Origin: an uncultured Gammaproteobacteria bacterium
GTDB taxonomy: Bacteria; Patescibacteriota; Microgenomatia; Levybacterales; UBA12049
Length of the DNA stretch: 64,000 nt
NCBI GenBank assembly: GCA_964503265.1
Contig: CAZCYO010000005.1
Span: forward strand, 39,151-103,150
Reading direction: 5' to 3'
Shown here: piece by piece, positions 11,889-55,788 of the stretch
Layout: every line of letters starts with the position of its first letter
Numbering within the stretch: the stretch's first letter is position 1
The notes under the pieces: model-generated
Databases searched by the model: none
Told to the model about the DNA's origin: nothing
What the model saw: only the letters and a program-made list of their open reading frames with translations
Translations under genes and position numbers: made by a program

Positions 11889-11933
11889 GATATTTACATC
11901 GTCTTCTTTTTTCCCCTATACTTAAAAAACACT

Positions 11934-13151: not shown

Positions 13152-13262
13152 AAGTTTCCGAGTACTTCTCGCTAATGCGCTGAGTATAACGTATGTGAAA
13201 CAACCCCGCGATTGAAGTCTTATTCGCTATTCAGTTCCTCCCCACTATGATACAATAGATCT

Positions 13263-13952: not shown

Positions 13953-14005
13953 CTAAAAGCCTTACAGCTTGATTCGTACCTCATCCATCGCATATAATAC
14001 TCTCT

Positions 14006-34027: not shown

Positions 34028-37000
34028 CTAGGCTGCTTTGGCATGCGTGTCATCGTGCGCGGAATCAGGTTTTCGTCCACGTCCTCTTATTCGATTCATG
34101 AAGCTTCTAACTTTCCCAGGTTCTTTTGCATGACTATCTTCATGATGATTATCATCGTGCTTTGCATGGTCAGCTTCTTCTTCTGGTGCTTTCTTTTTCT
34201 CGTCTATAGCATATTGTGTTTCTGCTTCTAGTTTTGCAAATACGTCTTCTGCTTTTGAAAGAATTGCACTTTGTGCTTTATCCTCCGGCGATGTTTTATC
34301 TTTGAGTGCAGCAATTCGCGCATGAATATTCTCTTTAGCTGCTTTATGTGCCGCAAGTTTATCATCTTCTGTCATACCCGTTGTATATCGTTGGTTCAGT
34401 CCCGCGCGGAGATCAGCTGGGAACGCAGCGTCTTCAATAAAGGGCTTTGCTTTATCAGGAATATCTCCAGGCTTTTTTTCTTCAGTTTTTGTTTCGGCTG
34501 GTTTTGTGCCTGAACCCGTTGGAGCAGCTGCAGGCGTGTCTGTTTGTGTTTTATGTTCATCAGATTTTCCTGTATGAGGTGTTTTGTGTTCTTCTTTCTT
34601 CTTTTCTGGGACGACTCCTGTGGCTTCAAGTTCGCGTCGTGGATCAAAAGGAAGTGGGATCGCAGGCCACGGCTCAGTCACGGTCGGCGGCGTAATGAGC
34701 ATATCTTTTGGAAGAGTGAGCGTCATGGTTGCATTAATACTCGTGTCTGGTGGAGCTAGTGCGATCACATCGCCTGTTAATGGAAGGCCATAATTACCAG
34801 GTCCTGGAACTGGGTTAAATCCTTGACCAGTAAACCCAGCTTCACCGAGATTGTGTAGAAAATCAGGATTCTTCGCTTTGAGTTCACTAACTTTTCTAAT
34901 ATCAAATCTAAAGTTCACTAAATCACCGCGTGCTCCGCCTGGGCGAGGGAAGTTCGTTGGATTCGTTTCAGTATCCATATAATATTCACCTTCAAGTACT
35001 GGTTGTCCGTTAAGACTCATGTCTTGAATTGTAATATGCTTGTTCGCATCATATGTGATCTTAATTCGTCCTTCATCTGTGGTTATATCGCCACCAGTTG
35101 GATTTGCTTTAATGAGAGCTGTGATTCTGTCGTGGAGAGGCACTTTGTTTTCAATGACGACATTTCCGACTGAGAGACCCGCTTTATCGAGTGCTGCATG
35201 GAGTCCTTGCATCTCTTGTGGTTGGCCGGTGAATTTGACTGATCCATCGGGTTGAATTTCCCCCATGACATGCTTTGTACTTGGTAGCCAGAATTTACCT
35301 CCTGGAAGTACTTTTATGCGATCGACACTTTGAGTGACTGGATTTGGCATGTCGAAGAATGCTGCCTGACTTCCTCCGTTTACAGCAGCAAGTGCTTGTT
35401 TCATTTGTACTACTTGCATTGAATCGACACTAGTATGTGGAAGTCCGCTTAGCATAGCTTTTACTTCCGTTGGGAGATCAGGTGCTTTGGCGATATCTCC
35501 ATGTACCACGATTGATCCATCCTGTTTTACAAACATAGGGAGGTTGAGTGCTTTTCCCTTCTGGTCAAGAACGGGAACTCCTTGTTTATCAAGCAGCCAG
35601 AGGTGTCGTTCTGTGCCTGAAAAAGCAGTTTCTGGATGGACACGAAATCCGTTGGGGAGTGATACGTCATGTCCAGTTTTAAATGCATCTTTAAATGCAT
35701 CAATACTTGGCGGAACACTGAACTTATTCTCAATCCATGCGCCAGCGCCTGTTCCTCTAAGGCCTCTGGTCTGTTCCATAGCGCCTTTGCCCATTCGGTC
35801 AAAGAGGGTAGGACCGACGTACTGTGGTTGGCCAGTTCTCAGCTCTGTTATGGTTGCACGGGCACTTGAGGCGATCTTTTGTCCGATAACTCCACCCACC
35901 ATACCTGTGCCAAAGCTGATCGCACCAGCAGTAAGGGAGCGACGGAATCGGTAGTTTCTCATTCGTCGATCAGCAGCTCGCTGTCCTGGAGTGAGTTCTT
36001 GTGCCCATTTGGAGAGTTCTGTTACTAGATCTTGTTGCATTTCTTGATATTTTGCTTGAGTTGAAATATCGAAATGTAACAGTTCTGCTAAATCTTTCTC
36101 GTCCTTGGTGAGATTCGCGCTTTCATCACCATAGGCGGTGGCACTCTCAAAGGTAATAAGGTTCTTACGATTGTCGACTGACATTTCTTCTCTTTTTATA
36201 ATTTCAGCAATTCTACTTCTCGCTTCATTAACTGCTCGAGTCATGCGATTTGCATCTCCACTGGTCATGTCTGCTTTAATTTCAGCCACACTTCGTCTCG
36301 TGCGTCCGGTTATGATATCGACAGTTGTTCCTCCTCCTTCATGGAGTACTTTTGCTGAAATTGCTTTTCTGAGTTCAAATATTTGTTCAAGTTCGTGACG
36401 ATTTCGTGCGTCTGGTCCGGTGGATCGTCTGTTATACGCGACGTCTTTATTCACTGTCCAGTAATCACGATTTGCTTCCTGCCATTTTCTCGCTCCCGCT
36501 GCGACTCCTGCTGCAGCTGAGGCAACGCCAAGTGGCGTAAATGGAGAGAGAGGGGCCGCAATTCTTCCGATCAATCTAACCGGTCCTGCCCATCCTCGTC
36601 CGGCGATTGCGACAATTGCTCCGACAGTCATCGGGTGGAGTAGGGTATTTCCAATTACCGCAAGAATCGGTCCGCCTTCACGCAGTACCCGAGCTCTCGC
36701 ATTTACTCTATAAAGAAGACTTTCTTCCCAGCCTCGACCATTTTCATAAGCAGCAGCACGTTCATTCCCTAAGATAAAGACAACTTTTTTATTAACCCTA
36801 TCAAGAGCTGCGAGACGATCTGCTTCGGGGATGAGTTTACCATCTTTATCGACAATAGTTTTTAGATACCTTTCTCGTGCGACTTTCGCCATCTGCGTTA
36901 TGTCTGAAGCAAATTCTTGGGCGCGATCTCCATAGCGATTGGGTGCGTTGAGGATTGCTTGCGCATCAGGGTCGCGTGGATTGGCACGAATGATATCTCG

Positions 37001-40308: not shown

Positions 40309-42063
40309 TTATGCTTTTTCTATTCGGTTGTACGTAAATGGAATAGTTGTCATCAGTTTGCGCTCTATCTTTCCGTCTTTATCTTTGGTGCTTTCAAAGA
40401 AGGACATTCTTAGAGAACCATCTTCCATTTTTGTGGCAATTCCCCAGTAAAACCTCTGACCTACCACATAATCATCTAAGATTTTTTTCTCTGCCTGCAA
40501 ATCAGTCTCTGATGGTGTGTCTATGTTTTTCCCATGAAGGCCTAATTGATGAATATGTACCTGTATAAGATGATTTCTTCCGTCTCCAGGCGATGGTTCC
40601 TTTCCATATGCTTCTTTTAACCCAGTTTTTTCTTCAAGTTCTGTAAAGCGCTTTGTGTGCTTTGGCATATCGGGTATAGTACTATCATTAATTGCTTTAC
40701 TATAGTCATTATCTGGAATAGCTACTGCTCCTAGCATGGCATAATTCTCTCCCTGTTTTGTCGCAGTCCCACGTATCGAAAATCCTAGCTCTTTATTAAC
40801 TTCATTTGCTCGCGCGGCAATTTGATCAATCATTTGAAGGAGTGCCGGGGTGAGTATGAGAGCGGATGCTTTTTTTGTGAGCTCTTTACTCCGTACGTCA
40901 GCTAGTTGTGTTTTCAAGTATGCTAATTCTTTTTGGAAATCTTCTTTTAGCGATATTCCTTCAGTTCTGAAGTCTCCAGTAGTTAGATCTAATAATTGAT
41001 CCACGACCTCTTTATAGGTTAATCTTTTACCTTCAGGCGTTTTTATTTGTGAAGGAAGGTTGGCATATTGATCAATGTCTTTTTGGGATACCGGAATAAC
41101 GCTATTTTTCTCTTCTGTTTTTTCCGGTGGAGCAGGGGTATTTTCTGTCACAGGAGAGATATCAAAAAGGAGCTTGAGTAGTGGTTTTTCCTTGTCGTTT
41201 GGGTTATTGACTCTTGTTGTAGTATCCCCGGATTTCTTTTCGTTAGCTTTTCTAATGAGTTCATCTTTTAGCTCTTTATTATTACTACTAATGAGATCTG
41301 CTTCTATAAGAGAGGGGATAAGTTTGCTCGTGTTGGCCCCAAAAACATTAGAAAACCAGGAAATAATCTCCATATCTTTTTGTAATGCGGCATAATCTAC
41401 TTTCTCATTTTCATCGACATATTCAGTCGCGACATATAAATAAAATTTTTTAATATCAGAGCTCTTATTAGGTCCAACAAAATATGTATCATAGAAATGT
41501 AGTAGTTTATCTGTCGTGATCTCTCCCTCAATCCCCATTTTTTTATAAACGTTCTTTACTTCTTCACGTTTATTTTCGGCTGTCACTTCAAGTTTCTTTA
41601 TAAGCGATGCTTTTACTTGTTCAGCCCACGCTGCTTTTTGTTTGTCAAATTCCTTTTCTGGCTGTTTTTTCCAATAATCAGTACGCTCTGTATCAGAAAG
41701 TTTTTTTACTTTATTTACCGTATCATCTGATAGGGTGAGTTGTTCATTTTTAATTTCTCCAATATCAGTTTTCTGTGGGTTAAGTGCATCACTACCCAGA
41801 AGTAATCGGGTTGTTAAGGCGACACGTTCTGATGAAACGCGTTCTATTTCCTTTGGTTTAACTGTCTCTGCTTGGGATGGGGAAGCTCCTTCGTGTTCTG
41901 ACATAGATTTAGTGTAATCAGTATAAAAAATCTTTGCAAATTTTGCTTTATAGGAACTTAACAAAATGATTGTCATATTGCTCAATTGTTTTGTTGCTGG
42001 AACAATCGTTAGCAATGAAGCAATGAAGCAATGAAGCAATGAAGCAATGAAGCAATGAAGCAA
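40309..42063 (-). CDS. hypothetical protein (584 aa as called). The N-terminus encoded by the 8-bp repeat is probably 5' leader, with the true start likely downstream (MTIIL... or MSEHEG...)
   Basis: Long ORF with a K/E-rich soluble body; the first 16 codons (HCFIASLL x2) are an artefact of translating the GCAATGAA repeats. Confidence 0.45.
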   Translation of the reverse strand: MLHCFIASLLHCFIASLLTIVPATKQLSNMTIILLSSYKAKFAKIFYTDYTKSMSEHEGASPSQAETVKPKEIERVSSERVALTTRLLLGSDALNPQKTDIGEIKNEQLTLSDDTVNKVKKLSDTERTDYWKKQPEKEFDKQKAAWAEQVKASLIKKLEVTAENKREEVKNVYKKMGIEGEITTDKLLHFYDTYFVGPNKSSDIKKFYLYVATEYVDENEKVDYAALQKDMEIISWFSNVFGANTSKLIPSLIEADLISSNNKELKDELIRKANEKKSGDTTTRVNNPNDKEKPLLKLLFDISPVTENTPAPPEKTEEKNSVIPVSQKDIDQYANLPSQIKTPEGKRLTYKEVVDQLLDLTTGDFRTEGISLKEDFQKELAYLKTQLADVRSKELTKKASALILTPALLQMIDQIAARANEVNKELGFSIRGTATKQGENYAMLGAVAIPDNDYSKAINDSTIPDMPKHTKRFTELEEKTGLKEAYGKEPSPGDGRNHLIQVHIHQLGLHGKNIDTPSETDLQAEKKILDDYVVGQRFYWGIATKMEDGSLRMSFFESTKDKDGKIERKLMTTIPFTYNRIEKA

Positions 42064-42083: not shown

Positions 42084-42773
42084 TTGTATACTATTTCTAT
42101 GCTCTTTGTGGGATTATTCTTTCTTTTTCTTATTCTCTTATTTATCTCATCATATTTACTTACTCAATCTCTTTCAACTCTTTTTTATCGGATCACGAGA
42201 AGTGAGAGATGGACTATTACTATTCTGGCCCTTCTTTTTTTTCCAGGTGTGCTCATTCACGAGTTGGCACACTTCTTAATGGCAACGATATTATTTGTTC
42301 CGACAGGGGAGATAGAGTTTATCCCACAGATTATGGAAGACAGGGTGAAATTAGGGAGTGTTCAGATCGGGCAGACAGATCCATTCAGACGGGCGATTAT
42401 CGGGATTGCACCAGTTATCGTTGGGGCGAGTGTATTAATTGGGGTATTATATTACTTTACAACTTCGACCTTCGCATTTACTACACCACTAGATATTCTT
42501 AAAGTACTAGGGATACTCTATATAGTGTTTGAAATTAGTAATACGATGTTTTCGAGTAAGCGTGATGTTGAAGGTACGCTTGAACTACTTGTAGCCATAG
42601 TGGTTATCGGAGGGGTACTCTACTTTGCTGGAGTACGACTCCCTGAATCGTTTATCGAAGTGATTACTTCAGACAAAGTATTATCATTCTTTGAACAAAC
42701 AAGTAAACTTCTCATTCTCCCGCTGCTTCTTAACTATTCCTTGTGGGCAGTAAGTAAACTCCTCGGAAAATAA
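42084..42773 (+). CDS. polytopic membrane protein with an HExxH motif (putative membrane zinc metalloprotease)
   Basis: 229 aa; about 5 TM segments; LIHELAHFLMA motif at the end of TM2. Confidence 0.4.
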   Translation: MYTISMLFVGLFFLFLILLFISSYLLTQSLSTLFYRITRSERWTITILALLFFPGVLIHELAHFLMATILFVPTGEIEFIPQIMEDRVKLGSVQIGQTDPFRRAIIGIAPVIVGASVLIGVLYYFTTSTFAFTTPLDILKVLGILYIVFEISNTMFSSKRDVEGTLELLVAIVVIGGVLYFAGVRLPESFIEVITSDKVLSFFEQTSKLLILPLLLNYSLWAVSKLLGK

Positions 42774-42777
42774 CTCT

Positions 42778-43143
42778 TTACGTACATGTGTCAAATCCAA
42801 AGTTCTTAATGCATGAGGCACCTGTTATATATGCGATTGTATTGACGATACCTATCGCTAAGAGAATCAATACAAGTCCGATCAGTGCATAGGTGATGAT
42901 TTGTTTTGCTGCACCTGCTTGTTTCGGATCTCCACCAGACATAATATATTTAATACCACCCAAAATGATAAACACGAGTGCGGTAAATCCAGCAAAGAAG
43001 AGGGAATAGTTAAGGAGTTGCTTAAAGAGCGCCGGGATACATGCTAGTGTTGCGATATCAGCAGTCCCATCTGGTGCAGTCCCTTTAAGACAGCCTGCCT
43101 TTGCCCAGAAAGATTCAGCGAGAATGAATAAGTGAATGAACAT
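42778..43143 (-). CDS. VirB2/TrbC-like T4SS pilin paralog 1
   Basis: 121 aa; signal sequence + TM-loop-TM core GFTALVFIILGGIKYIMSGGDPKQAGAAKQIITYALIGLVLILLAIGIVN, shared with the four downstream paralogs. Confidence 0.6.
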   Translation of the reverse strand: MFIHLFILAESFWAKAGCLKGTAPDGTADIATLACIPALFKQLLNYSLFFAGFTALVFIILGGIKYIMSGGDPKQAGAAKQIITYALIGLVLILLAIGIVNTIAYITGASCIKNFGFDTCT

Positions 43144-43212
43144 ATATCTAGCCTAACAAATGCCAAAAAAAAAGACAAGCATATGCTTGTCTTAGTCTAA
43201 AAAAGACGGTAA

Positions 43213-43644
43213 TTAGTTAACGAGTTTCGGAAGAGAAAGATTACTAACACTAAGACCAAATAATCCGAGAACGATATTAAGAATGAAGTAGGCAAGGAAG
43301 GTAATAATAAGACCAACAAGAGCAGCAACGATAGTCCCACGTGCTTCTCCAACTTTGGCTTTATCACCACCTGAAAGAATCCATTTAATACCACCAAAGA
43401 TTAGAAAGAAGAGAGAAATAACAGCAGCAATTACAAGAACTCCAATAATTATATTTCGAAGAACATCGCCAGTTGAACTGCCTTGAAGCTTACATAGTTG
43501 ATCTTGGATTTGTCCTGCTGATCCACCCGTAACACCTGACTTAGCACAAGGATTAAGATCTACTTCGCCAGCTGCCATTGCAGTAGATACGACTGAGGCC
43601 ATAAAAAGTGAAGATGTAGAGATTGTTGTGAGCAGTTTTTTCAT
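43213..43644 (-). CDS. VirB2/TrbC-like T4SS pilin paralog 2
   Basis: 143 aa; signal peptide (MKKLLTTISTSSLFMASVVSTAMA); core LFFLIFGGIKWILSGGDKAKVGEARGTIVAALVGLIITFLAYFILNIVLGLFGL. Confidence 0.65.
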   Translation of the reverse strand: MKKLLTTISTSSLFMASVVSTAMAAGEVDLNPCAKSGVTGGSAGQIQDQLCKLQGSSTGDVLRNIIIGVLVIAAVISLFFLIFGGIKWILSGGDKAKVGEARGTIVAALVGLIITFLAYFILNIVLGLFGLSVSNLSLPKLVN

Positions 43645-43784
43645 GTTTTTTAGATAAGTTATTGTTATCTGTATTTATTATTGAACTATTGTTTATGTGT
43701 TGTCAATAGATCAAAATGAATTACTTTTTTGTGCCCTTTTGAGGCTAAATGTATTCATTTGCTATAACGGCGCATCATCCAAAA

Positions 43785-44198
43785 TTAGTTATTCACCAAT
43801 CGAGGAATTTTAAAGATAGTGTTTGAATCGAGTCCGAAAATTCCAAGAACAATATTTAAAATAAAGAAGGAGAGAAAGGTGATGATTAGTCCGACGACTG
43901 CTGCAGTTAACGTCGCACGTGCTTCGCCAACTTTTGCCTTGTCCCCGCCAGAGAGAATCCATCTAATACCACCATAAATAAGAAAGAATAACGAAGCGAT
44001 CGCTGCTAAAACGAGTAAGATTGAAACGATATTAAAAATAAGTGAATTACCGCTACTTTCTGGATTTATATCGCAGAGAGATTTAAACCCACCATCAGGA
44101 CACAGTGTTACCGATGATGCAGCGATAGTGTATGTAGCAGACAGAATAACAGTACCGATAGAGGAGAGTGCGCTAATAGGAAGAAAATATCGTTTCAT
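43785..44198 (-). CDS. VirB2/TrbC-like T4SS pilin paralog 3
   Basis: 137 aa; core LFFLIYGGIRWILSGGDKAKVGEARATLTAAVVGLIITFLSFFILNIVLGIFGL, about 80% identical to paralog 2 in the core. Confidence 0.65.
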   Translation of the reverse strand: MKRYFLPISALSSIGTVILSATYTIAASSVTLCPDGGFKSLCDINPESSGNSLIFNIVSILLVLAAIASLFFLIYGGIRWILSGGDKAKVGEARATLTAAVVGLIITFLSFFILNIVLGIFGLDSNTIFKIPRLVNN

Positions 44199-44237
44199 AG
44201 ATATATCGTAGAAACTCTCACAAAAAAAGTCAATTGA

Positions 44238-44567
44238 TTAGGTGTTTGGTAGATCAAGAGACAAGAGATTTATATTAAACATGTATCCAACGATATTAAC
44301 TATCCCAAAGGAGAGAAAGACGATGAGTACCCCAACTACTGCAAAGATGATTCTATTTCGCGCAGCTTGGATTTTCGCTTTATCGCCACCAGAGGTTATC
44401 CATAAAATCCCACCCCAAATAATAAAAAAAAGCGTAATCACTACGCCAATGACTATAAAGAGTGTTATCGCATTTTGAATAAGTTTCTGGTTCTCAGCTA
44501 TACCACCTGTTGGAATACCTGATGGGACTGGGACTGATTGTCCATTAATAGTGAATCCTGCTGCCAT
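44238..44567 (-). CDS. VirB2/TrbC-like T4SS pilin paralog 4
   Basis: 109 aa; core LFFIIWGGILWITSGGDKAKIQAARNRIIFAVVGVLIVFLSFGIVNIVG. Confidence 0.6.
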   Translation of the reverse strand: MAAGFTINGQSVPVPSGIPTGGIAENQKLIQNAITLFIVIGVVITLFFIIWGGILWITSGGDKAKIQAARNRIIFAVVGVLIVFLSFGIVNIVGYMFNINLLSLDLPNT

Positions 44568-44611
44568 AGTATTAGCATAGTGAATACTCTAATCATTTTG
44601 CAAGATAGGTA

Positions 44612-45997
44612 TTATTTGAGATTACCTGCGTTGCCGCCGACTTGAACACTCGCTTTTAGTCCTGGAAGCTGGATGATATCTACACCGATGACTTGGAGCA
44701 TGACCATAGAGAAAACGAGGAAGAGTAACCCAACGATCGCTGATGTGATCTGTTCCTGTGCTGCTTTCACTGCTTCTGCGTTACCCTGAGAGGTCATATA
44801 GCGGTATCCGGCTGCGATAATGGCCAGAAGTGCGATACCACCTGAAATACTTAATAGGATTCTAAATAACCAGAGAATAAACCCCTGGGGGTCAGTGCTG
44901 ATCGCTCCAAGAGCAGAGTCTACTTTCGTACACTTTTTAATTTGTGTAAGTGCTGTTTTTATCGTTTCTGCATTCGTGTTCCCTGGAGCAAGGGTTGGAA
45001 TGGCAATAATTTTACCCGAAGAATCTTTTCCTTCGATACATGGTGGGAGAATGGGGGTCGGGATAGGGGTGGGTGTTGGATCTGATGATTTTCCGGAATT
45101 TCCTGTACTTACTGGTCCTTGTTCACCACTGATGTTACTTTGTGCGGCCTTACATGTTTTTTGATCTACAACATCGTCAACTAGTTCAAAAGGCAAGCTC
45201 CACCGGCATGTTACTCCGGCTGTCGTTCCAAGAAAGCTGTTGTTAGTGGCTTCCATACACAATTTTTTCTTTCCAGTTGTCCATGCTTTATTCGTTTTAA
45301 AATCCCACGGAATTTTACTGCGTGTGGTTTGAGAGCCACTTAGCGTATCAGTAAAGGGTTCTGTATCATTAAATGTTTTTTTATCTAAGAAAGATCCTCC
45401 ACCATCTAGCCAAAATGAATACGTAACGTTGGGTTGCGGATTTATGACATATACTTGCGTAGATGTACCTTTTTGGATCTGTGTGCAAGACATATAGAGT
45501 GCAATGTCACCACCCTTATAAATCACGCGATATGCGCCTTGGGCTAGAAGTGAGTTATTTTTGTCGTTGATATTACTATAAACTTGACTAGACTTGCTAT
45601 CATAGAGGCTAAATTTATGTACACCAGGTTCTTGTACATCTCTTCCAGTATTCGGAAATTGAAAAACTAATTTATTTTTTTCAACAGATGTTGGATCTTT
45701 CGTATCTTGATTTCCTCCAATAAGTTGTAATGTTGTCTGCACTTCTTTTCCTGCGCTACTTACAAGAAGTGTATATCCTTTGTTTTTATCGAAAATATAT
45801 GTTGTTGAGGTGAATGTGATAGTAAAGTTTGCTTGTCCGGATTCAATGGTGAACCCATCGTTCTTATCCGTTTTCGGTACAATAGGTGCTGTCACAATAT
45901 CTGGATTAATCGCAAATATAACTTGTGGAGCGAATATATGAGAAGAAATGATTAACGTGAAGATAAAGCACTGGGCAAGGAGTCTTTTCATGCTCAT
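44612..45997 (-). CDS. large secreted protein: ~330-aa extracellular N-domain fused to a C-terminal VirB2-like pilin module (candidate minor/tip pilin or adhesin)
   Basis: 461 aa; signal peptide; C-terminus LFRILLSISGGIALLAIIAAGYRYMTSQGNAEAVKAAQEQITSAIVGLLFLVFSMVMLQVIG is homologous to the pilin cores above. Confidence 0.55.
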   Translation of the reverse strand: MSMKRLLAQCFIFTLIISSHIFAPQVIFAINPDIVTAPIVPKTDKNDGFTIESGQANFTITFTSTTYIFDKNKGYTLLVSSAGKEVQTTLQLIGGNQDTKDPTSVEKNKLVFQFPNTGRDVQEPGVHKFSLYDSKSSQVYSNINDKNNSLLAQGAYRVIYKGGDIALYMSCTQIQKGTSTQVYVINPQPNVTYSFWLDGGGSFLDKKTFNDTEPFTDTLSGSQTTRSKIPWDFKTNKAWTTGKKKLCMEATNNSFLGTTAGVTCRWSLPFELVDDVVDQKTCKAAQSNISGEQGPVSTGNSGKSSDPTPTPIPTPILPPCIEGKDSSGKIIAIPTLAPGNTNAETIKTALTQIKKCTKVDSALGAISTDPQGFILWLFRILLSISGGIALLAIIAAGYRYMTSQGNAEAVKAAQEQITSAIVGLLFLVFSMVMLQVIGVDIIQLPGLKASVQVGGNAGNLK

Positions 45998-46071: not shown

Positions 46072-47409
46072 ATGAAAGAGAAACATTTCGATTCGTTATA
46101 TCCGGCTGATTCGTATTCTGATGAAATTGCCAAGATTGGCGTATCTATTAAAGAAGGGAACTCTAGTCAGCTCATCGGACTTCCTGGTGTAGGAAGAGCA
46201 AATGTATTAAGTCTGCTTGCACATAACAAGTCTGTTCGAGAGAAACATTTTGGAGAGAATCAGAAATGGCAACATTTCGTACTCGTTAATTTCTCTGAAG
46301 TAAAAGATCGAACACTTTTTGATGTCACTAAGTTTCTTTTTCTCTCACTCATGGAATCATTAAAAGAACGTTCGATGACTGAAGAGTATGAAATGGTTCA
46401 GGCTGAATTTAAAGAAGCACTCTCATTTAACGATGAATTAGTACTTTTTCAAGCCTTGAAATCAACTATCGACTATTTGTGCCTAGAGAAAGAACTAACT
46501 GTCATTTTTCTTTTTGACAGGTTTGCAGAATATTTACAGCAATTAACTTCAACGTTTTTTGCTAACCTTCGTGTGCTTCGAAATCATGCCAAATATCGTT
46601 TTAGTATCGTTTTTTCTTTAGAACGACCCCTTGAAGATATCATTGAGCCGTCGCTGCTATCAGATTTTTATGAATTTGTGGGTGGACACTATGTGTTTAT
46701 GCGCATATATGATCCTGTAAGCGCGGCATTTAGGCTCTCATATCTAGAGAAAGTTACCGGGCGAAAGCTGGATAACGCATGTATGGATGAAATACACCGA
46801 TTAACAGGTGGATTGTGGAGGCTTACGAAGATTTGCGCTGAAGCGATGCTTGCTGAGGAGAAACATGCAGATGAGCTGTTACCGTTTCTTCTTTCACGCA
46901 AAACAGTAAAAGAAGCATTATGTAAAATCTGGGATTCATTTTCACCTGATGAACAAACCGCACTGCGGACCTATATGGATGGAAAGATAGATCCAGATGT
47001 AGAGATGCAAGAATACCTTTCAAAGATTGGAATTATTAAAGATAACGTCCTTCAGATACCATTTCTTAAAGAGGTAATTGGACAAAAAGAAGTAACTACA
47101 CAACTGGACGAACATATTATTTATGACATAGATACAAATATGATCATGAAAGGGGATGTGGAGATTTCAGATAGATTAACTGCTGCCGAATACCGCTTAT
47201 TACTTTTCTGCCTCCAGAACACCGAGCGAATTCTTGAGCGTGATGAAATTATTACAGCAGTTTGGAGAGATAGTGCGACGACTGCAGGGGTTACCGATCA
47301 AGCGCTTGACCAGCTCATTTTCCGGGTTAGAAAAAAGATTGAAGCAGATCCAAATAACCCCCTCCATCTCCAGACGGTCAAGGGCAGAGGGTTTAAATTC
47401 AGTTCCTGA
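46072..47409 (+). CDS. transcriptional regulator: N-terminal ATPase-like domain (degenerate P-loop) + C-terminal OmpR/PhoB-type winged-helix DNA-binding domain
   Basis: 445 aa; LIGLPGVGRANVLSLL P-loop-like segment; C-terminus LTAAEYRLLLFCLQNTERILERDEIITAVW...LIFRVRKKIE...LQTVKGRGFKF matches the trans_reg_C winged helix. Confidence 0.55.
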   Translation: MKEKHFDSLYPADSYSDEIAKIGVSIKEGNSSQLIGLPGVGRANVLSLLAHNKSVREKHFGENQKWQHFVLVNFSEVKDRTLFDVTKFLFLSLMESLKERSMTEEYEMVQAEFKEALSFNDELVLFQALKSTIDYLCLEKELTVIFLFDRFAEYLQQLTSTFFANLRVLRNHAKYRFSIVFSLERPLEDIIEPSLLSDFYEFVGGHYVFMRIYDPVSAAFRLSYLEKVTGRKLDNACMDEIHRLTGGLWRLTKICAEAMLAEEKHADELLPFLLSRKTVKEALCKIWDSFSPDEQTALRTYMDGKIDPDVEMQEYLSKIGIIKDNVLQIPFLKEVIGQKEVTTQLDEHIIYDIDTNMIMKGDVEISDRLTAAEYRLLLFCLQNTERILERDEIITAVWRDSATTAGVTDQALDQLIFRVRKKIEADPNNPLHLQTVKGRGFKFSS

Positions 47410-47433: not shown

Positions 47434-47811
47434 ATGCAAAATCACAGTTCAAAATTCAAAAGTGATTTAAAAGTGAGATGCTATCACTTTAGTTTAGAGC
47501 TTATTACTGTTATTGACTCCTTACCTAAAGAGCGAAGTTGCTGGATCATTGGAGACCAGGTATTAAGAAGTGGGACAAGTATTGGCGCGAATCTTACAGA
47601 AGCAACAGCCTCAAGCTCCAAACTAGAATTTAAGAAATTTCATGAGATAGCTTTGAAAAGTGCAAACGAAACAAAATACTGGCTTAATTTACTCTTAGAT
47701 AGCGGTAAAGGAGAAAAATACCGTCTTGAACAGCTTTTACAAGAAGTTACGGAGTTATCAAATATGATAGCGGCAGGAATTATGAAAATGAAAGGTAAAA
47801 CGACCTTTTAA
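47434..47811 (+). CDS. four-helix-bundle protein (TIGR02436 family), second copy
   Basis: 125 aa; GDQVLRSGTSIGANLTEA...ALKSANETKYWLNLL signature; flanked by imperfect inverted repeats (47413-47430 / 47812-47833). Confidence 0.75.
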   Translation: MQNHSSKFKSDLKVRCYHFSLELITVIDSLPKERSCWIIGDQVLRSGTSIGANLTEATASSSKLEFKKFHEIALKSANETKYWLNLLLDSGKGEKYRLEQLLQEVTELSNMIAAGIMKMKGKTTF

Positions 47812-47928: not shown

Positions 47929-50900
47929 ATGAAACAAAACGAATTTTATGTGAACGAGGATCAGCTTAGATTGACAGAAAAGCAGCATCAAAGCTATGCT
48001 AGATCTATGCACGAACCTGCCCTGGACACGAAAGAAGACAAAGCATTAGATACTGCTGTCAGTAAATTTGTAGTTAGAATTCAGTCTGCTTTTAGAAGGC
48101 AGGATGATGCTGAGAAGAAAAAACAGGAAGAAGAAAAGAAAAATCTTGAGAAGAACGCGGATAAAGATACCAAACCTGATTCTCCGATTAATAAAACGCC
48201 GGTAACAAATGAGCATGATACTCTTCAAGAACCGAAAGTATCACTCCTCTCAAAACTTTTTGGTGCACTCGTATCAGGTATATCAAATGAAAAATTACTT
48301 GTAAAAGCTGAATCGTTCACGCAGTCTTACAAAACCCTTAATACCGCAAAGCCTGAAGAGTTAAAAGATCTTTTTTTATCATGGGAACCTGACACGAAAG
48401 ATCGAACAGAGATCATGCTGTCTAAAACTGCGCAGCGAATGATTTTAGAGATCGTTAAAGATAAAGGGATTAGCACTGCTATCTTCCTCCAGGCTGTCAA
48501 TAGTGGCTCAACTGTTAAAGCACAGGAAGCTGCATCTACCATACAACACACAGCTGGTGTTTCAGAACCTATGCAAAAAGCAATTCAAGACATCCTCGAT
48601 ACGATGGAGGTTCATCCGGTCGATGAATGGAAAACGGAAGACTATGCGAAACAATTCGTAAAACTACATAAAGCAGTAGAGAAGAGTAGTGATAGTGGTA
48701 CTCCACAGAGTGCTGTAGATCTTCAAGTTGCGCAAGTCGTAGAGAATTTTCTTATTGACGAAGTAACAGCAGATAATGTCTCGGAAAATTCATTTGTACA
48801 AGCAGTAACGACAGTCGTGACGAACAGTGAAGAAGCAGATGGGAATGCTTCGTTTCATGCACACCCTGAACCTATTCAAAAAAACGATGAACAGAAAGCT
48901 GTTTTAGAAGCAGAAAGAATTCTTAAAGAAAACCAGACAGCTACTCCTACTGCAGATGCAGCTGATGCCTATCTAAAAAATCAACCAGCAGCATCTCCTG
49001 AGACAATTCACACTTTTTCTAACATACCTAAAAAACTTTCTGGAGGACATAGTGTTGAGACAGCATATGCTGTATGGAAAGCCTTTAACAGAGGACAAGA
49101 GCTAAGTGAAGAACAGCGACTGCTTGCTGAACGTGGATTAATCCCTACTCTTGAAGGTGGTAGTCCTCTAACACGAGCAGATGATGGAGAACAGGTACAT
49201 AACCGCCTTCCAATGCAAGAAGTCAGGATGGGAGCATCTCCAGATACGACTACGTTCGAAGAATTTCTTGATACTCTTGACCCTGAAGCGAAAAAAAATC
49301 TTCTAGAATCGCTTGCAGAAGCAGACAAAGAAGCGGTAAAAAAACCTGAAGTACGAGCATTAGAGCGAGCAGAAAATTTAAAGGATCGTATTGATCGATG
49401 GGGGACAAGTTATGACCCCAAAAAAAGGCAAGAAGACTTAAAAAAACTGCGTGGACTTGTTCAACCAAACGGAGAGCTGACTACCAGACGTGGTAGTATT
49501 CTCAGTGCCATTAAGCGTGCGAAGTTTGATCCTGATGAGCCTCCTGTTGATGATCCAGAAGATACGACAGGAAGAAAGAAAGTCGCACGAGGGATAAGTC
49601 CAGAAAAAATTAAAAAAGAGCGTGATTATGTCCAGAAAATTTTTGAAGCAGCGCGTGCCAGTGTTAATGATGCATTATTAAGAGGAGATATCGATGCTGT
49701 GAAAATAACAGAAAAGGGGTTACTTGATCAACTCCTTATCTATGAAAAAAAGTATCCGAGTGAACGCCGGGGCAAAGGAAAAGAAGGATATGACACAGTT
49801 GAGAATATTAATGACTTGTGTGAACAAATCAGTCGAAGTGACGATAGATTCGATATCGGTGGAGACTATCAACTGATAGATGATAAAACACAGAGTGTAA
49901 ATGAGCAAAACTTCATGATTTGGATTCGAGAACAAATGGTGTATTGGCATGGACAAGATCCTGATAGTGAAGTAAAGTTCTTCTCCCAAATTGCTGTTGA
50001 TAATAACGACCTTTTTCGTCCAATTAATTTAGGATCGATGATTGCAAATAAGAGTCTGTACTTTAAAACTCGTGATAATAATACCCTTGAAGATCTGTAT
50101 AACGAAGTAACGAATCTCGCATGGTTAATTGGAGGAATTCGCAACATGGATATTTCATATCGTTTACAGATGACCCCTGAGGAAAAAAACGGAGAACTGA
50201 TGGCAAGTTTACTTGCAAATAACATGCTTACCAAAAAAAGTGCTAATGGAAAGAATACCTTAGAGGCTATTCTCACGATGGCTGGTCGTTTCTACGATAA
50301 AGCAAATCACGGCGATGCTGGCGATGATTTTATGGAAAAACATCGAGATATGGATTTGGGGGACGGAATAGCCACCGGACTTGCCATTTACTACAACATT
50401 ACCGACAAAGAAAAATTACAATCGTTAATTGGTGCTGATACGCATTTCTTTAAACGAAGTGGTTTTAAAATGGCACTGGAGAAGATGGCTGGAGTGGATA
50501 AATTAGATCTTCCTGAGGTCGCCGAAAGGAAAATGCACGCATATTTAAAAAGAGCAAAACTTCTTACGAAAGATGATGATGACGTTGATGATACATTCGA
50601 AGCATTCATGGATAAATGGTTTGGCAAAGAGGAGGACGGAGAGCTCCAGGAAAAAGGACGAACTGACTTTATGAAAATGCTCAATGTGTTTGTGCCAGAA
50701 CCACACCCACAACAAGTAGACCTAGCCAATCAATTGATTCGTCAAGCTATTACTGAGCTGTCAAATAAACATAAGGAGCCTCGGGTTAGAGGGAAACCAA
50801 ATGATTTTGCGCAAGCTGATGTGGCAGATGACGCCACAGCAAACTTCGCTCAATTAACTGCAAGTCTTATGAGCTGGTGGGGTGGTGCGGCTGCGAAAGC

Positions 50901-52212
50901 TGATACAGGAGTGGCTGCGGTAAATGGTATGTCGAAATACAAATGGGTAAGAAGCTATAAGTATAAACAGGCTGATTCTGGACGTGCCGGTCCGGTAGGT
51001 AATTTGTATGGTATGGGTACAGTTCAAGAAGTATACGTCGATGTATTTACTGGTATGTTAACGATTGGGAAGAAATCTATCATGGAAGTGGTCGAGCGGA
51101 AAATAAAAGACTTGAAAGATAAAAAATCATTTGAAGAAAAAGAAAAAACAGCACAAGAGCTTAACTTTAACCTTAATACAGCAAAACAATATGGAGCTAA
51201 TACGTCTAATGCGGCAAAGATTTATTTATCAGAAGGTGGTGCCGATATGCCACATTTCCATGATTTCATCGAGGTGAATCAGTGGGGAACAGTCAGAATC
51301 AATGCAGATAAAATGGCCGAGGCATTTCAAGATAAAATTATTAAACCTGCTCGTTATAACTGGAGAACCAACCCCATGCCATTTCATAAAGATGTCAGAA
51401 AATTACTCGATGATCCTAAACTACCTAAAAAGATTAAGCTTAAAGATGGAAGAGAAATACCGGTTCGAGACACCTATATGACTGTCACTCAGCTGGAAAA
51501 TACTTTTAGTAGACAAGCGATTAGTAATATTCAAAAGATTTTCCAGCATGATATGCATCATAAATTTAATATGGATAAAGATGATAAGAAGTCTGTTGAT
51601 TATTTTACTGCTAATGCACATGCAAAGTTTTTTGACGAAAAAGCTGGGCGAGTGTATCGATTTAAAGTGAACGAAAAAGGAGACTATGTCGATAAAAAGG
51701 GAAAAGCGATTCATATGCCACATCATGAGGGCGGACATCATCAAAGTGAAGTAGACTGGCTATTAAAACGTGGTGTTGTTGATTGGGATACGAATAAGAC
51801 AACTGTGGGTCTTGAAAGTAAATTACCTAAAGAAATAGCTGACTTAATGGATAATAGTATTTTTCGAAGTATTGTGGTGAGAAGTTATTTGGTAACACGA
51901 TTTGGAGGATTGTTATACGGAAATTCTGTCAGAAACAGTCCATATAAGTTCTTAGATATTTTATCTCGTGAACATGCAGTTGAAGGACTTGAAAGTATCC
52001 CGACGAACGCTGTCGCAGATGAAGATGATCTGCATGCGAATAATATGCATGGACACTATTTTTCTCACTTTGATATCCAACTTATTCGAAAATTATCAAA
52101 TAATCAGCGTTGGAAGAATTATAGTAAAGCAGTAGGCGAGTCGTTTAGTTCAGGAACATTTGAGGGACTGAAAGAACTTTGGAGCTTCTTCTGGAAAAAC
52201 GCATTTAGTTAA
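47929..52212 (+). CDS. giant hypothetical protein (1427 aa), soluble, K/E/D-rich; candidate secreted substrate/effector or structural protein of the T4SS-like locus
   Basis: Uninterrupted 4.3-kb ORF with no TM segments or nucleotide-binding motifs. It lies between the regulator/4HB genes and the VirB6-like gene (its 3' end overlaps by 4 nt). Confidence 0.5.
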   Translation: MKQNEFYVNEDQLRLTEKQHQSYARSMHEPALDTKEDKALDTAVSKFVVRIQSAFRRQDDAEKKKQEEEKKNLEKNADKDTKPDSPINKTPVTNEHDTLQEPKVSLLSKLFGALVSGISNEKLLVKAESFTQSYKTLNTAKPEELKDLFLSWEPDTKDRTEIMLSKTAQRMILEIVKDKGISTAIFLQAVNSGSTVKAQEAASTIQHTAGVSEPMQKAIQDILDTMEVHPVDEWKTEDYAKQFVKLHKAVEKSSDSGTPQSAVDLQVAQVVENFLIDEVTADNVSENSFVQAVTTVVTNSEEADGNASFHAHPEPIQKNDEQKAVLEAERILKENQTATPTADAADAYLKNQPAASPETIHTFSNIPKKLSGGHSVETAYAVWKAFNRGQELSEEQRLLAERGLIPTLEGGSPLTRADDGEQVHNRLPMQEVRMGASPDTTTFEEFLDTLDPEAKKNLLESLAEADKEAVKKPEVRALERAENLKDRIDRWGTSYDPKKRQEDLKKLRGLVQPNGELTTRRGSILSAIKRAKFDPDEPPVDDPEDTTGRKKVARGISPEKIKKERDYVQKIFEAARASVNDALLRGDIDAVKITEKGLLDQLLIYEKKYPSERRGKGKEGYDTVENINDLCEQISRSDDRFDIGGDYQLIDDKTQSVNEQNFMIWIREQMVYWHGQDPDSEVKFFSQIAVDNNDLFRPINLGSMIANKSLYFKTRDNNTLEDLYNEVTNLAWLIGGIRNMDISYRLQMTPEEKNGELMASLLANNMLTKKSANGKNTLEAILTMAGRFYDKANHGDAGDDFMEKHRDMDLGDGIATGLAIYYNITDKEKLQSLIGADTHFFKRSGFKMALEKMAGVDKLDLPEVAERKMHAYLKRAKLLTKDDDDVDDTFEAFMDKWFGKEEDGELQEKGRTDFMKMLNVFVPEPHPQQVDLANQLIRQAITELSNKHKEPRVRGKPNDFAQADVADDATANFAQLTASLMSWWGGAAAKADTGVAAVNGMSKYKWVRSYKYKQADSGRAGPVGNLYGMGTVQEVYVDVFTGMLTIGKKSIMEVVERKIKDLKDKKSFEEKEKTAQELNFNLNTAKQYGANTSNAAKIYLSEGGADMPHFHDFIEVNQWGTVRINADKMAEAFQDKIIKPARYNWRTNPMPFHKDVRKLLDDPKLPKKIKLKDGREIPVRDTYMTVTQLENTFSRQAISNIQKIFQHDMHHKFNMDKDDKKSVDYFTANAHAKFFDEKAGRVYRFKVNEKGDYVDKKGKAIHMPHHEGGHHQSEVDWLLKRGVVDWDTNKTTVGLESKLPKEIADLMDNSIFRSIVVRSYLVTRFGGLLYGNSVRNSPYKFLDILSREHAVEGLESIPTNAVADEDDLHANNMHGHYFSHFDIQLIRKLSNNQRWKNYSKAVGESFSSGTFEGLKELWSFFWKNAFS

Positions 52213-53939
52213 TCAGAAGGTAGCTCTTGTCTGGCAGTGACTTGACCTGTTGTCGTTTGTACTGGAGTAGATGGTCGATCTCTTCGTACACCACCTGTTA
52301 GGATACGTATGCCACTTGATACTTTGCCCCATGTTCCTTTTGCTGCATTTGCTCCGGTTCCTGTTAGGAATTGTCCAGCTGCATATTTATATGAACCATC
52401 AGATTTCTTCTCAAATGTTTTCTTACCTATCCATTTAGGAATCATCGTCGTACCAGCAGCGCCTTTCTGGAATCCACCAAGGATAGCTGGAGCGATGTAT
52501 TTATTTGGACTGGACTTGAGTGCTTCTCGAACCATCGTTAACATGTCTGGGAGGATGAGGAGGAAAGAAAATCCGATGATGTAGCCTAGTCCGCTAACAC
52601 CTGTCGCTGGGGTGCCGATAAGTGGGGGATTAAAGCTGAGTGTTTTATCGTTTCCAGATGTCATGAGAATACGTCCAGCGAGCATCACTGCGACACAGAC
52701 AGGATAGATCATGAGATTTGAGATAAGTCCTCTGATCCACGGGCTAAAGCCAAATGTGCTTTCAGGGAAAATGCCTGCAAATAAATAGAGTGGACCAAGT
52801 GCGGTATAGATAATGACGTAGGCAAAGGAGCGAAGTAACATAAACCAAATACGAAACAAGGTAATCATAATCGCGATGATGACGACGAGAGTGACGAATA
52901 CATCGACGACCCATTTGAGTACTGAATTAAACATCCCAGCAGCACAGTTGCCGATATTTCCACCATCATCTCCTGCTTGCCACGGGCCTATTTTAAATCC
53001 GCATGGACTGTTATTTGGAAAAATTGTAAGCGATCCTGCAACGTCTCCAAATGTCTCAGCAACACGACGTGAAATTGCGACTGGGCCAGCAGCGACATCA
53101 CCAGGAGTGTTTAGCGAATATTCATCTTTTAAGTTGTCCGTGATTGCACCATAAAATCCGTAGGGACTTTTGATGAGGTTCTGGATAACTTTTCCATTAT
53201 CTATTTGTCCTGCATCTTCGACAGATTCAAACAGATTAATCGCCAGATATGTCGTCGCCCACATCGCATCGACTAAAATGCCGACAATCGCATAAGAAAA
53301 AGTGATGAGGAGCATTGTTATGACAATTTTAGGAAGCTGGTTTTGAATCGTCATTACTGTTCGGGGATCGATTTTGACTCGCAGCATGATCGCAAGTCCG
53401 ATAATGACAAAGGCAATTACAAATCCCATATATGCAATATCTCGAAATATTCTCCAGAAACGAAGCATATAATCGAGCTGTTCAAATCCAGTACTTTGGG
53501 CATATGTTGATGTCACAACGCCGAAGTTATTTGCCATATATGAGACATAATTTCCTGTATGAATTGGCATGGCGTACATATCACCCATAGAGGAGGTAAG
53601 TGCTCCGATTAGTCCACCTGGTTGATTGGTCTGCGAGGGCGTAGCATAGCCTATTTTATTTGTCTCACGATTAATTGTTAGACATGGCTTTTGTGTTATC
53701 ACATCAGTACCGGATAATTGACAGATCATCGAAGCGAGTACTTCGATCATCATGGACTGGACAAATGTATGCTGATTTTGGGGAACATTCGCGTCGGTAT
53801 TAGGTGTCACATATTGGTTATATCCTTGTGCATGGGACGTGGGGACAATAGCTAAGACTGAACCAGATATAAGAACGAGAAAAAGAAAAAAAGAAAAAAT
53901 TTTTGAAGGAGAAAACTTCACCAAGGCAGGCAGATGCAT
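52209..53939 (-). CDS. VirB6/TrbL-like polytopic membrane protein
   Basis: 576 aa; signal peptide, ~130-aa extracytoplasmic N-domain, then at least 6 TM segments and a hydrophilic C-terminus. The topology and its position in a T4SS-like locus fit VirB6/TrbL. Confidence 0.5.
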   Translation of the reverse strand: MHLPALVKFSPSKIFSFFLFLVLISGSVLAIVPTSHAQGYNQYVTPNTDANVPQNQHTFVQSMMIEVLASMICQLSGTDVITQKPCLTINRETNKIGYATPSQTNQPGGLIGALTSSMGDMYAMPIHTGNYVSYMANNFGVVTSTYAQSTGFEQLDYMLRFWRIFRDIAYMGFVIAFVIIGLAIMLRVKIDPRTVMTIQNQLPKIVITMLLITFSYAIVGILVDAMWATTYLAINLFESVEDAGQIDNGKVIQNLIKSPYGFYGAITDNLKDEYSLNTPGDVAAGPVAISRRVAETFGDVAGSLTIFPNNSPCGFKIGPWQAGDDGGNIGNCAAGMFNSVLKWVVDVFVTLVVIIAIMITLFRIWFMLLRSFAYVIIYTALGPLYLFAGIFPESTFGFSPWIRGLISNLMIYPVCVAVMLAGRILMTSGNDKTLSFNPPLIGTPATGVSGLGYIIGFSFLLILPDMLTMVREALKSSPNKYIAPAILGGFQKGAAGTTMIPKWIGKKTFEKKSDGSYKYAAGQFLTGTGANAAKGTWGKVSSGIRILTGGVRRDRPSTPVQTTTGQVTARQELPSD

Positions 53940-55214: not shown

Positions 55215-55682
55215 TCATGCTTGATCTTTTTTCTCCACAAAACGGAATTCGAGTTTCTTAAAGAACGTAAAAGCAAATATTTTCTCTGAATCTTGTAATA
55301 AGTCTCCGTTATTCTGCTCCATAAGTGTGTGAATTCGTTTTGTAATTCTCCATGCCGTTTTGTATGTTACCCCGAGTTCTTTTTGTAACTTTCTCGCAGA
55401 GATAGAACCCTTGGTATGTGTCATTAAAAACATTGCATAGAACCATATGCGAAGGGGAGTAGATGATTTTTCAAAAATAGTTCCAGCGAGTGGATACACA
55501 TGAGATCGACAGTACTCACATGTGTATGCAGTCCTATTCTGAAGCTTGTAATGTTTTGTTATTTTGTCACATTTGTTACAAGTTATTCCTTTTGGAAAAC
55601 GTAATTTTTTAATTTCTTCAAGACATGCATCGTTTGATGGGAATTGTTTTATCAGTTCTGAGAGAGGGAAATTTTGATTCAT
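55215..55682 (-). pseudogene. IS1595-family transposase N-terminal fragment (zinc-ribbon + HTH only; DDE catalytic domain absent)
   Basis: 155 aa; LSELIKQFPSNDACLEEIKKLRFPKGITCNKCDK...YTCEYCRSH...AGTIFEKSSTPLRIWFYAMFLMTHTKGSISARKLQKELGVTYKTAWRITKRIH matches the IS1595 N-terminus. No DDE domain follows. Confidence 0.55.
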
Positions 55683-55788
55683 AAATATATGATATTAAGC
55701 CTATCTACGTGTTGTCAAGGGATATATATAAAAAATACCTATTGACGAGTAATATCCTTTTTGTCTAGCATAGATATATACCAATAAA

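Follow-up and report, generated by a model that had tools for sequence, protein, structure and literature searches.

What does a large soluble protein without recognisable domains do beside the genes of a type IV secretion system (T4SS)? The question is raised by an open reading frame (ORF) at 47929..52212 (+) of the window, which here means the whole stretch of 64,000 nucleotides that was analysed (contig CAZCYO010000005.1, positions 39,151 to 103,150). The window covers part of the chromosome, around dnaA and dnaN, with other housekeeping genes, including those for RuvABC, LeuRS, PGK, YidC and PPDK. It contains a monoderm-type T4SS cluster that encodes a VirB4-like ATPase, a TraC-like protein, PrgI/VirB3, two large proteins with a single transmembrane (TM) segment, a DUF5663 protein, pilins and a VirB6-like protein. 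The product of the ORF is a previously unrecognised conserved component of the known T4SS of Patescibacteria; the family is new, and the system is known. We infer that the protein is a client of this system, and its constant place beside the VirB6-like gene makes it a leading candidate for something that the machinery carries or docks; its possible roles are weighed below.

Gene, protein family and predicted fold

The ORF runs from ATG to TAA over 1427 codons (the long form, from the start codon ATG1; the coordinates include the stop). It is a genuine gene, because an open frame of this length at about 40% GC is far beyond chance. Run SRR12487046, assembled independently, yielded the same 21.7 kb (100% identity) with the same ORF. 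Its product contains 9.7% K, 8.3% D, 7.9% E and one Cys. The Kyte-Doolittle maximum over 19-residue windows was 1.09, indicating that no TM segment is present, and the Walker A (P-loop) pattern [AG]xxxxGK[ST] was absent. A first-pass annotation of the window, which had described a soluble protein with neither TM segments nor a P-loop, was thus borne out. Judged by its sequence, the protein is large, soluble and made in the cytoplasm, without a Sec signal or TM segment, and it is the sole product of >800 aa in the T4SS cluster that lacks a TM-like segment. The same annotation had mentioned charged low-complexity stretches. Charged stretches (36-44% charged residues) were located at aa 1-120, 400-600 and 840-960, but the C-terminal ~870 aa are confidently folded and mostly helical rather than of low complexity.

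Searches of Pfam, NCBIfam, PHROGs and PDB sequences returned zero matches for the protein, and Pfam searches with pieces of it at E<=10 gave nothing meaningful. A word-indexed homolog search found nothing with the protein alone and one fragment with a 61-sequence profile. The family was seen only in an exhaustive HMMER search with aa 228-1427 against 1.84 billion representatives, which returned 192 relatives of 800-1,900 aa at E<=1e-3, including 148 at E<=1e-10 and 33 at E<=1e-30 (best E 1.6e-143); therefore, a report of "no homologs" would have been a false negative. The 90% cluster of the protein has a fragment of 278 aa as its representative, which may partly explain why the word-indexed search returned nothing, and low-complexity words are suspected to have swamped the candidate list of that search. 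In one contig (L009, from ENA ERZ4216102, equivalent to window 49173-52288), the gene is split into products of 736 aa and 278 aa by an N run; a pseudogene frameshift was considered there and rejected, as the N run lies at a scaffold gap. A scan of genome collections with the single protein gave nothing, and a 7-sequence alignment gave two loci and one metagenome locus. Neither Pfam nor NCBIfam detected a domain in any of 33 family members, and no homology to a housekeeping family was found. The first-pass statement that the ORF has no recognisable domains is thus true of the databases, but it is misleading, since the ORF belongs to a family of 192 clusters and contains a large, well-predicted folded domain.

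A profile of the family (102 sequences) matched the window ORF with 630 bits (E 3e-190); in each locus it matched a single ORF, and the window contained no further match. On sequence comparison, the protein is a member of a previously undescribed family, with its core and C-terminal block matched. Family coverage is concentrated in a core at aa ~625-1160 and in a second conserved block at aa ~1300-1420. The core (49801..51408 (+), aa 625-1160) is mostly alpha-helical, with an AlphaFold2 (AF2) confidence (pLDDT) >90 over most of it, and the C-terminal block (51820..52209 (+), aa 1298-1427) closes with a helix that is rich in Gly, slightly basic and moderately amphipathic. A variable insertion before this block (51583..51819 (+), aa 1219-1297) has low family coverage and pLDDT <50. 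According to the coverage profile, the alignment and charge-hydropathy windows, the variable N-terminal half (47929..49800 (+), aa 1-624) is charged and probably disordered. Only the three or four nearest relatives can be aligned over the first ~600 residues, and the length of the N-terminal half varies by ~800 aa across the family. The residues conserved in 84-100% of 102 aligned sequences include N661, W665, R667, R738, Y744, G811, Y821, D826, N919, G986, D992, K1003, Y1010, G1024, K1139, R1142 and Y1143. The best-conserved positions are often R, K, D, N or Y, and so many conserved polar residues in the core suggest a catalytic or ligand-binding site rather than mere packing. A TM-like window (>=1.6) occurred in only 3 of 151 family members. 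The named relatives are Levybacteria, within the Microgenomates group of the Patescibacteria group, and the best explanation of the matches is that the family is specific to Patescibacteria of the Microgenomates/Levybacteria type.

The AF2 model of aa 560-1427, made from a 61-sequence alignment, had a mean pLDDT of 84.6 and a pTM of 0.83. It is almost all helical, with a few small sheets, and the insertion at aa 1219-1297 is its one disordered part. Foldseek found no match to the model at E<=0.001 in the PDB or BFVD (best E 0.49 and 0.066, respectively; TM-scores <=0.20), and a profile search of PDB sequences returned low-complexity noise only. The structure prediction and Foldseek comparison proposed by the first-pass annotation thus yielded a confident C-terminal domain of ~870 aa that is unmatched in both collections, and the fold of aa 560-1427 is confidently predicted and has no relative within the PDB and BFVD.

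Comparison with known families gave the same picture from several sides. A Walker A motif and Pfam or NCBIfam matches, as expected of the T4SS ATPases (VirB4, VirD4 or VirB11), were absent from the protein and from the 33 members. The protein also lacks the at least five TM helices of VirB6/TrbL proteins, a role that is taken by the neighbouring gene. For conjugative relaxases (MOB), no Pfam, NCBIfam or PDB-sequence match was obtained and no relaxase appeared in the Foldseek results; the model is nearly all-helical, whereas the HUH fold is alpha/beta. A likeness of the residues "YAKDG" to motif I of MOBF relaxases was dropped, because these residues are encoded by promoter/leader DNA and the fold and profiles show no relaxase. 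Solved T4SS effectors (CagA, Legionella and Bartonella effectors, VirE2) were not among the relatives of the model (best PDB E 0.49); CagA chains were retrieved with E 3.1-3.8 and TM<=0.17. The BFVD matches to polyvalent proteins (LPD domains) had E 0.5-3, prob<=0.13 and TM<=0.18, with no Pfam or PHROGs match. The core alone scored 18.8 bits (E 0.0016) against DUF445 (PF04286), below the cut-off of 33.8 bits, and the full protein had no match. Secretion signals at either end had been proposed for examination, and none was recognisable. The N-terminal motif of the family is promoter DNA, as described below. The C-terminal tail (mean net charge +1, Gly-rich, amphipathic) is only modestly basic and is not diagnostic of secretion, so that a C-terminal membrane-targeting or secretion signal received modest support and was not adopted.

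Position, evolution and expression of the gene

The gene converges on a gene for a VirB6-like polytopic membrane protein of 576 aa (52209..53939 (-)), with an overlap of 4 nt at the 3' ends, and lies directly downstream of a regulator gene (46072..47409 (+)) and a four-helix-bundle gene (47434..47811 (+)), exactly as the first-pass annotation had it. The label "VirB6-like" is weak but concordant. The protein scored 24.4 bits against Pfam TrbL, under the cut-off of 25.9 bits, and it has ~6-7 TM-like segments; the six best PDB Foldseek matches of its AF2 model (pLDDT 77.6) were all R388 TrwI/VirB6 (E 0.076-0.4). It had 524 homologs, of which the named ones were Levybacteria or "Patescibacteria group" and one was labelled Xanthomonadales. 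A scan of viral contigs with the VirB6-like alignment found nothing.

Ten further family loci were compared, nine of which were found via the family (L001-L008 and L011) and one via the VirB6-like protein (L013). They represent ~8 distinct lineages, L001, L002 and L003 being counted as one because of their shared gene set. The VirB6-like ortholog stands tail-to-tail with the family gene in 10/10 of these loci, at a gap of 5-73 nt, where the window has an overlap of 4 nt. The first or second gene upstream, on either strand, encodes a Trans_reg_C regulator in L001, L002, L004, L005, L007, L008, L011, L013 and the P0006 contigs; in L003 and L006 the upstream sequence is too short to judge. Pilin genes were present in all six loci with enough upstream DNA (L002, L004, L005, L007, L011 and L013), and one of them (L007) also contained VirB4, TraC-like and PrgI genes. 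The genes downstream vary by locus, with NrdR/RNR in L001, L003 and L011 and a dehydrogenase in the window. The order of pilin array, OmpR-type regulator, family gene and convergent VirB6-like gene is fixed across the loci examined, and no homologs were seen outside T4SS-type loci. The link to the T4SS that the first-pass annotation had proposed is thus strongly supported by synteny in ten further loci. One public label deserves comment. L002 (CAYWMU010000082.1) is recorded as "uncultured Bacteriovorax sp.", and it carries the same T4SS module as L001, a contig of a Levyibacteriota metagenome-assembled genome, with identical ORF lengths and scores; the label is probably a binning error in the public record.

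This synteny bears on the possibility that the product is a Patescibacteria-specific cytoplasmic enzyme or structural protein unrelated to secretion, which is controlled by the adjacent OmpR-type regulator and shares an origin-near neighbourhood with the T4SS. The gene always has the regulator beside it and possesses conserved promoters of its own, and the many conserved R/K/D/N/Y residues would suit an enzyme; the T4SS region is near dnaA/dnaN among housekeeping genes, and its downstream neighbours differ by locus. However, the pairing with the VirB6-like gene (-4 to +73 nt) is constant while the flanking housekeeping genes change, the pilin array lies beyond the regulator in every locus with enough sequence, and synteny that persists to ~25% identity is hard to explain without functional coupling. 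A role unrelated to secretion is therefore unlikely.

Compared with their orthologs elsewhere, the genes of the module differ widely in conservation. Overall identities to the window were 27-36% for the family protein, 47-78% for the regulator, 26-58% for the VirB6-like protein, 38-74% for the pilins and 71% for VirB4. In L004, the regulator (78%), VirB6-like protein (58%) and pilins (64-74%) were well above the family protein (29-36%), and the same was found in L005 (64%, 49%, 55-59% and 36%, respectively); VirB4 is not on either contig. In L007, the values were 53% for the regulator, 37% for the VirB6-like protein, 41-53% for the pilins, 71% for VirB4 and 27% for the family protein. The family gene is the fastest-evolving identified gene of the module. 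Furthermore, its place can be occupied by a different gene. In Levybacteria RBG_16_35_11 (L014, MFNH01000064.1), a soluble ORF of ~1000 aa (11560-14687 (-), interrupted by an N run at a scaffold gap) lies between the regulator and the VirB6-like gene. This ORF had no match to the family with hmmsearch and an E of 0.44-0.57 with hhalign, and it is preceded by both upstream elements of the family gene (ATCAAG-N20-TATACT-N9-ATG and TTGACA-N17-TAGACT-N19-ATG).

These elements form a conserved expression unit of the gene's own, probably with two leaderless starts at 47929 and 48007, as predicted from sequence conservation. The first, a promoter-like element P1 (47891..47922 (+), ATCAAG-N20-TATACT), has ATG1 6 nt downstream and is the only exact match in the window; its box, spacing and -10 hexamer also occur in L004, L005, L006, L008, L011 and L014. 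The second, internal promoter P2 (47971..48000 (+), TTGACA-N18-TATGCT), is a near-consensus sigma-70 promoter that lies inside the long form, where it reads "LT......YA". A short form of 1401 aa (48007..52212 (+)) would start without a leader at ATG2, 6 nt after the -10 hexamer of P2. The pattern TTGACA-N18-TATNNT-N6-ATG had two exact occurrences in the window, against 0.1 expected with one mismatch allowed, and the spacer between TTGACA and the -10 hexamer was 17-18 nt across the loci. The distance from the ATCAAG box of P1 to the TTGACA of P2 is always a multiple of three, so the long form from 47929 may be made as well. Leaderless geometry is common in the window: a -10 hexamer (TACAAT, TATAAT, TATACT or similar) 5-9 nt, usually 6 nt, before an ATG without a Shine-Dalgarno sequence was also seen at dnaA, dnaN, the regulator, several pilins and the IS1595-like ORF described below.

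The in-frame position of P2 accounts for a motif, [EG]LTx6Y[ASP]x2-7M, that was found near the N-terminus of 68 of 136 full-length members compared with ~2% in controls and was unique to the family gene within each locus. An N-terminal recruitment peptide was considered and rejected, because the motif is promoter DNA read in frame. Its LT was encoded by TTGACA in 8/8 in-frame loci and in 0/46 internal LT dipeptides (P about 1e-9). The codons of "Y/H + next" form a -10 hexamer (TATGCT, CATACT, TATGAT or TAGAAT) with invariant A2 and T6, and an in-frame ATG follows this hexamer at the leaderless distance of 6 nt in six loci and at 15-22 nt, with an intervening GGAG, in two. In L007, P2 lies outside the ORF, upstream of and out of frame with the annotated start, and the equivalent ATG is the sole start. 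Leaderless promoters read in frame can thus mimic conserved N-terminal peptide motifs, and gene callers may over-extend such ORFs, which calls for caution in annotation.

The adjacent regulator (445 aa) has a C-terminal OmpR/PhoB winged helix (Trans_reg_C) and an N-terminal AAA_16-like region with a degenerate P-loop (GLPGVGRAN, no GK[ST]), and no gene of the module is better conserved (47-78% identity). A candidate operator, predicted from its conservation, is the ATCAAG box, which precedes the -10 hexamer of P1 by 20 nt. By analogy with type III systems, in which ExsE and FlgM couple secretion to regulation, the family protein might serve the T4SS as a substrate and, in the cytoplasm, act as a ligand or anti-activator on the STAND-like/OmpR-type regulator, so that its export would report machine activity and feed back on transcription. 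This idea overlaps with the roles as substrate and as accessory factor discussed below. It is in keeping with a regulator that adjoins the slot gene in every locus whatever the regulator's orientation, with the two tandem promoters (P1 with its ATCAAG box at a fixed 20 nt from the -10 hexamer, and the near-consensus P2), and with the retention of promoters and regulator in L014 despite a different protein. On the other hand, the idea is entirely inferential, known secretion-coupled regulators are small proteins, and ATCAAG is only a candidate operator for the regulator. The presence of an unrelated protein with the same regulator in L014 also makes specific protein-protein sensing less likely. 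Such a regulatory partnership is improbable.

Candidate roles at the secretion machine

The first-pass annotation had proposed either a secreted effector or a cytoplasmic accessory factor of the system. Its link to the T4SS stands, and for the choice between the two, fast evolution and one slot replacement only lean towards a substrate or effector. The proposal that the protein is a dedicated T4SS substrate or effector is tentative, and from the sequence data we would give it somewhat less than an even chance. It is favoured by evolution faster than that of the exposed pilins, by the hypervariable N-terminal half and by a slot that is able to hold an unrelated protein. If so, the VirB4/VirB6 translocon would receive the protein, which would act at the surface of the host bacterium or inside it. 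Its N-terminal half, variable and charged, could be the leading segment, adaptable or unfolded, and the conserved polar residues of the core could make up a catalytic or ligand-binding site. A more specific proposal is possible but doubtful, namely that the family is the conserved new-fold cargo of the relaxase-less and coupling-protein-less Patescibacteria T4SS, injected into the host bacterium to open or maintain a feeding interface or to subvert the host, and encoded in an exchangeable "cargo slot" that retains the regulator and the tandem leaderless promoters.

Several points weigh against export. No recognisable T4SS signal was found in the protein, and its C-terminal tail (mean net charge +1, amphipathic) fits membrane docking equally well. 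One argument for a secretion signal was removed when the N-terminal motif proved to be part of a promoter. A machine or accessory subunit, too, would be expected to have a single gene at a constant place in each locus, and T4SSs that have been well studied usually have many effectors, encoded at dispersed sites. A large helical protein under weak constraint could simply evolve fast, and the slot replacement is known from one genome, in which the gene is gap-interrupted. Finally, the taxonomic breadth of the family is poorly known, with only Levybacteria and "Patescibacteria group" labels seen.

The protein might instead be a cytoplasmic accessory or docking scaffold at the VirB6-like/VirB4 complex that is not exported, either as a receptor replacing the coupling protein or as an assembly or gating factor. 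Its solubility, the lack of a signal peptide, and its single copy at an invariant place beside the VirB6-like gene in 10/10 further loci agree with such a role, and the C-terminal helix, being Gly-rich, slightly basic and moderately amphipathic, could serve to dock the protein on the membrane. No type IV coupling protein (T4CP) is encoded in the 64-kb window, and T4CP genes are seldom near virB4 in Patescibacteria, which would leave room for a replacement receptor. By analogy with the Saccharibacteria VirB6 SEML1_0013, which has a C-terminal helical, ARM-like hydrophilic domain, a helical cytoplasmic appendage at VirB6 is plausible. However, the protein has no NTPase motif, and its evolution outpaces not only that of VirB4, the VirB6-like gene and the regulator but also that of the exposed pilins. 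A non-homologous substitute occurs in one genome with the rest of the module intact, and variation of ~800 aa in the N-terminal half is unusual for a stoichiometric machine part. A scaffold of this kind is possible but doubtful, and it is the main alternative to a substrate or effector.

Other genes of the cluster and comparison with known systems

In the window, the VirB4-like ATPase (29541-31940 (-)), TraC-like (31940-32605 (-)) and PrgI/VirB3-like (32608-33864 (-)) genes form one part of the T4SS cluster, and four small T4SS pilins and a 461-aa protein with a C-terminal pilin domain are encoded at 42778..45997 (-). Three further proteins of the cluster had no meaningful domain match, namely those of 1007 aa (26482-29505 (-)), 1822 aa (34028-39496 (-)) and 584 aa (40309-42063 (-)). 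The sole domain match of the 1007-aa protein was a sub-threshold RIFIN, and both it and the 1822-aa protein have one TM-like segment, located centrally. Evolution is fast in the 1822-aa protein (26% identity to its ortholog in L005) and in the 584-aa protein (31% identity to its ortholog in L004). Between the 584-aa gene and the pilin array, a 229-aa protein with ~7 TM segments (42084-42773 (+)) had no Pfam match and is highly conserved (79% in L004, 59% in L005). The pilin array of L007 contains a TraX-family (PF05857) gene, a hint of a pilin-modifying enzyme.

The four-helix-bundle gene between the regulator and the family gene encodes 125 aa (23S rRNA IVP/TIGR02436) and is found at this place in several lineages, on either strand. 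Copies were located at 9438-9803 and 5982-6368 in L005, at 9518-9874 and 16953-17318 in L011, and at 15153-15518 in L013, the extra copies lying within the pilin array or past the VirB6-like gene; the gene was absent from L002, L004, L007 and L008. Because only some loci have it at this place and its strand varies, the gene is unlikely to be integral to the module. It might be a small mobile gene or an optional partner, and a role as chaperone or immunity partner was not adopted, given its inconsistent presence and orientation. Just beyond the T4SS module, a 155-aa ORF (55215-55682 (-)) carries an IS1595-type zinc ribbon, according to the Pfam annotation of an identical contig (L010), and has a perfect TTGACA-N18-TATCAT-N6-ATG promoter (55680-55718 (-)); it may be a transposase remnant.

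CagA of Helicobacter pylori is the archetype of a large effector encoded inside a T4SS island. Like the family protein, CagA is fast-evolving, mostly helical and partly disordered, and it had no domain-database relatives when first found. However, the two have no sequence or structural similarity, and EPIYA-like repeats were not seen in the protein studied here. In addition, the host of CagA is eukaryotic, whereas the presumed host here is bacterial and translocation is putative. The cargo slots of type VI systems beside vgrG/PAAR provide another parallel, in that a large, fast-evolving protein has a fixed place by a machine gene, is replaced by an unrelated one in at least one genome, and keeps its expression signals. 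They differ in belonging to another secretion system; here, one replacement was observed, no adjacent immunity-like gene was identified, and the four-helix-bundle gene is inconsistent. The protein most resembles these two cases, the large effector of a T4SS island and the cargo slot, in its behaviour, although it is homologous to neither. Extended VirB6 proteins (the Rickettsiales VirB6 paralogs and SEML1_0013 of Southlakia epibionticum) resemble the family protein as large, hydrophilic, helical polypeptides genetically tied to VirB6. In contrast, the family gene is a separate gene on the opposite strand, no homology was shown, and its VirB6-like partner is short (576 aa).

The closest known system is the MPF-FATA-like T4SS of Patescibacteria, as in S. 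epibionticum and in the survey of Quinonero-Coronel et al. (2025), which shares with the window VirB4, TraC-like, PrgI/VirB3 and VirB6-like proteins, an array of VirB2-like pilins and the location near dnaA/dnaN. Its published make-up and location match the cluster in the window (PMC12102498). The T4SS of Patescibacteria is essential for epibiotic growth, lacks a relaxase or a nearby coupling protein, and has unknown substrates (PMC10633639, PMC12102498, PMC12857230); neither a relaxase nor a coupling protein lies nearby in the published loci or in the window. In the literature examined on this system, no large soluble protein is described as a conserved part of the locus. In the cluster table of S. 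epibionticum, no separate soluble protein of >1000 aa appears between the pilins and VirB6, and VirB6 itself is 1088 aa long with a helical C-terminal domain. The combination of an OmpR-type regulator, a slot gene and a short VirB6-like gene seems particular to the Microgenomates-type loci sampled.

The family provides a conserved soluble partner of the T4SS, unannotated in all libraries tried, with a high-confidence model, a conserved surface, an expression unit and a regulator. The carrier lineages are uncultured. The model, surface, promoters and regulator offer starting points for work by proteomics, metatranscriptomics and interaction modelling and, as soon as Microgenomates-group bacteria can be grown, by genetics. 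Without export, the protein would be an unrecognised structural part of a monoderm-type T4SS; if it is exported, it would represent the first candidate effector class for the T4SS of Patescibacteria. Should the proposal of a cargo slot prove true, the family would supply the first concrete candidate substrate, and the first rule of effector organisation, for a T4SS that is essential to a lineage estimated at about a quarter of the domain Bacteria.

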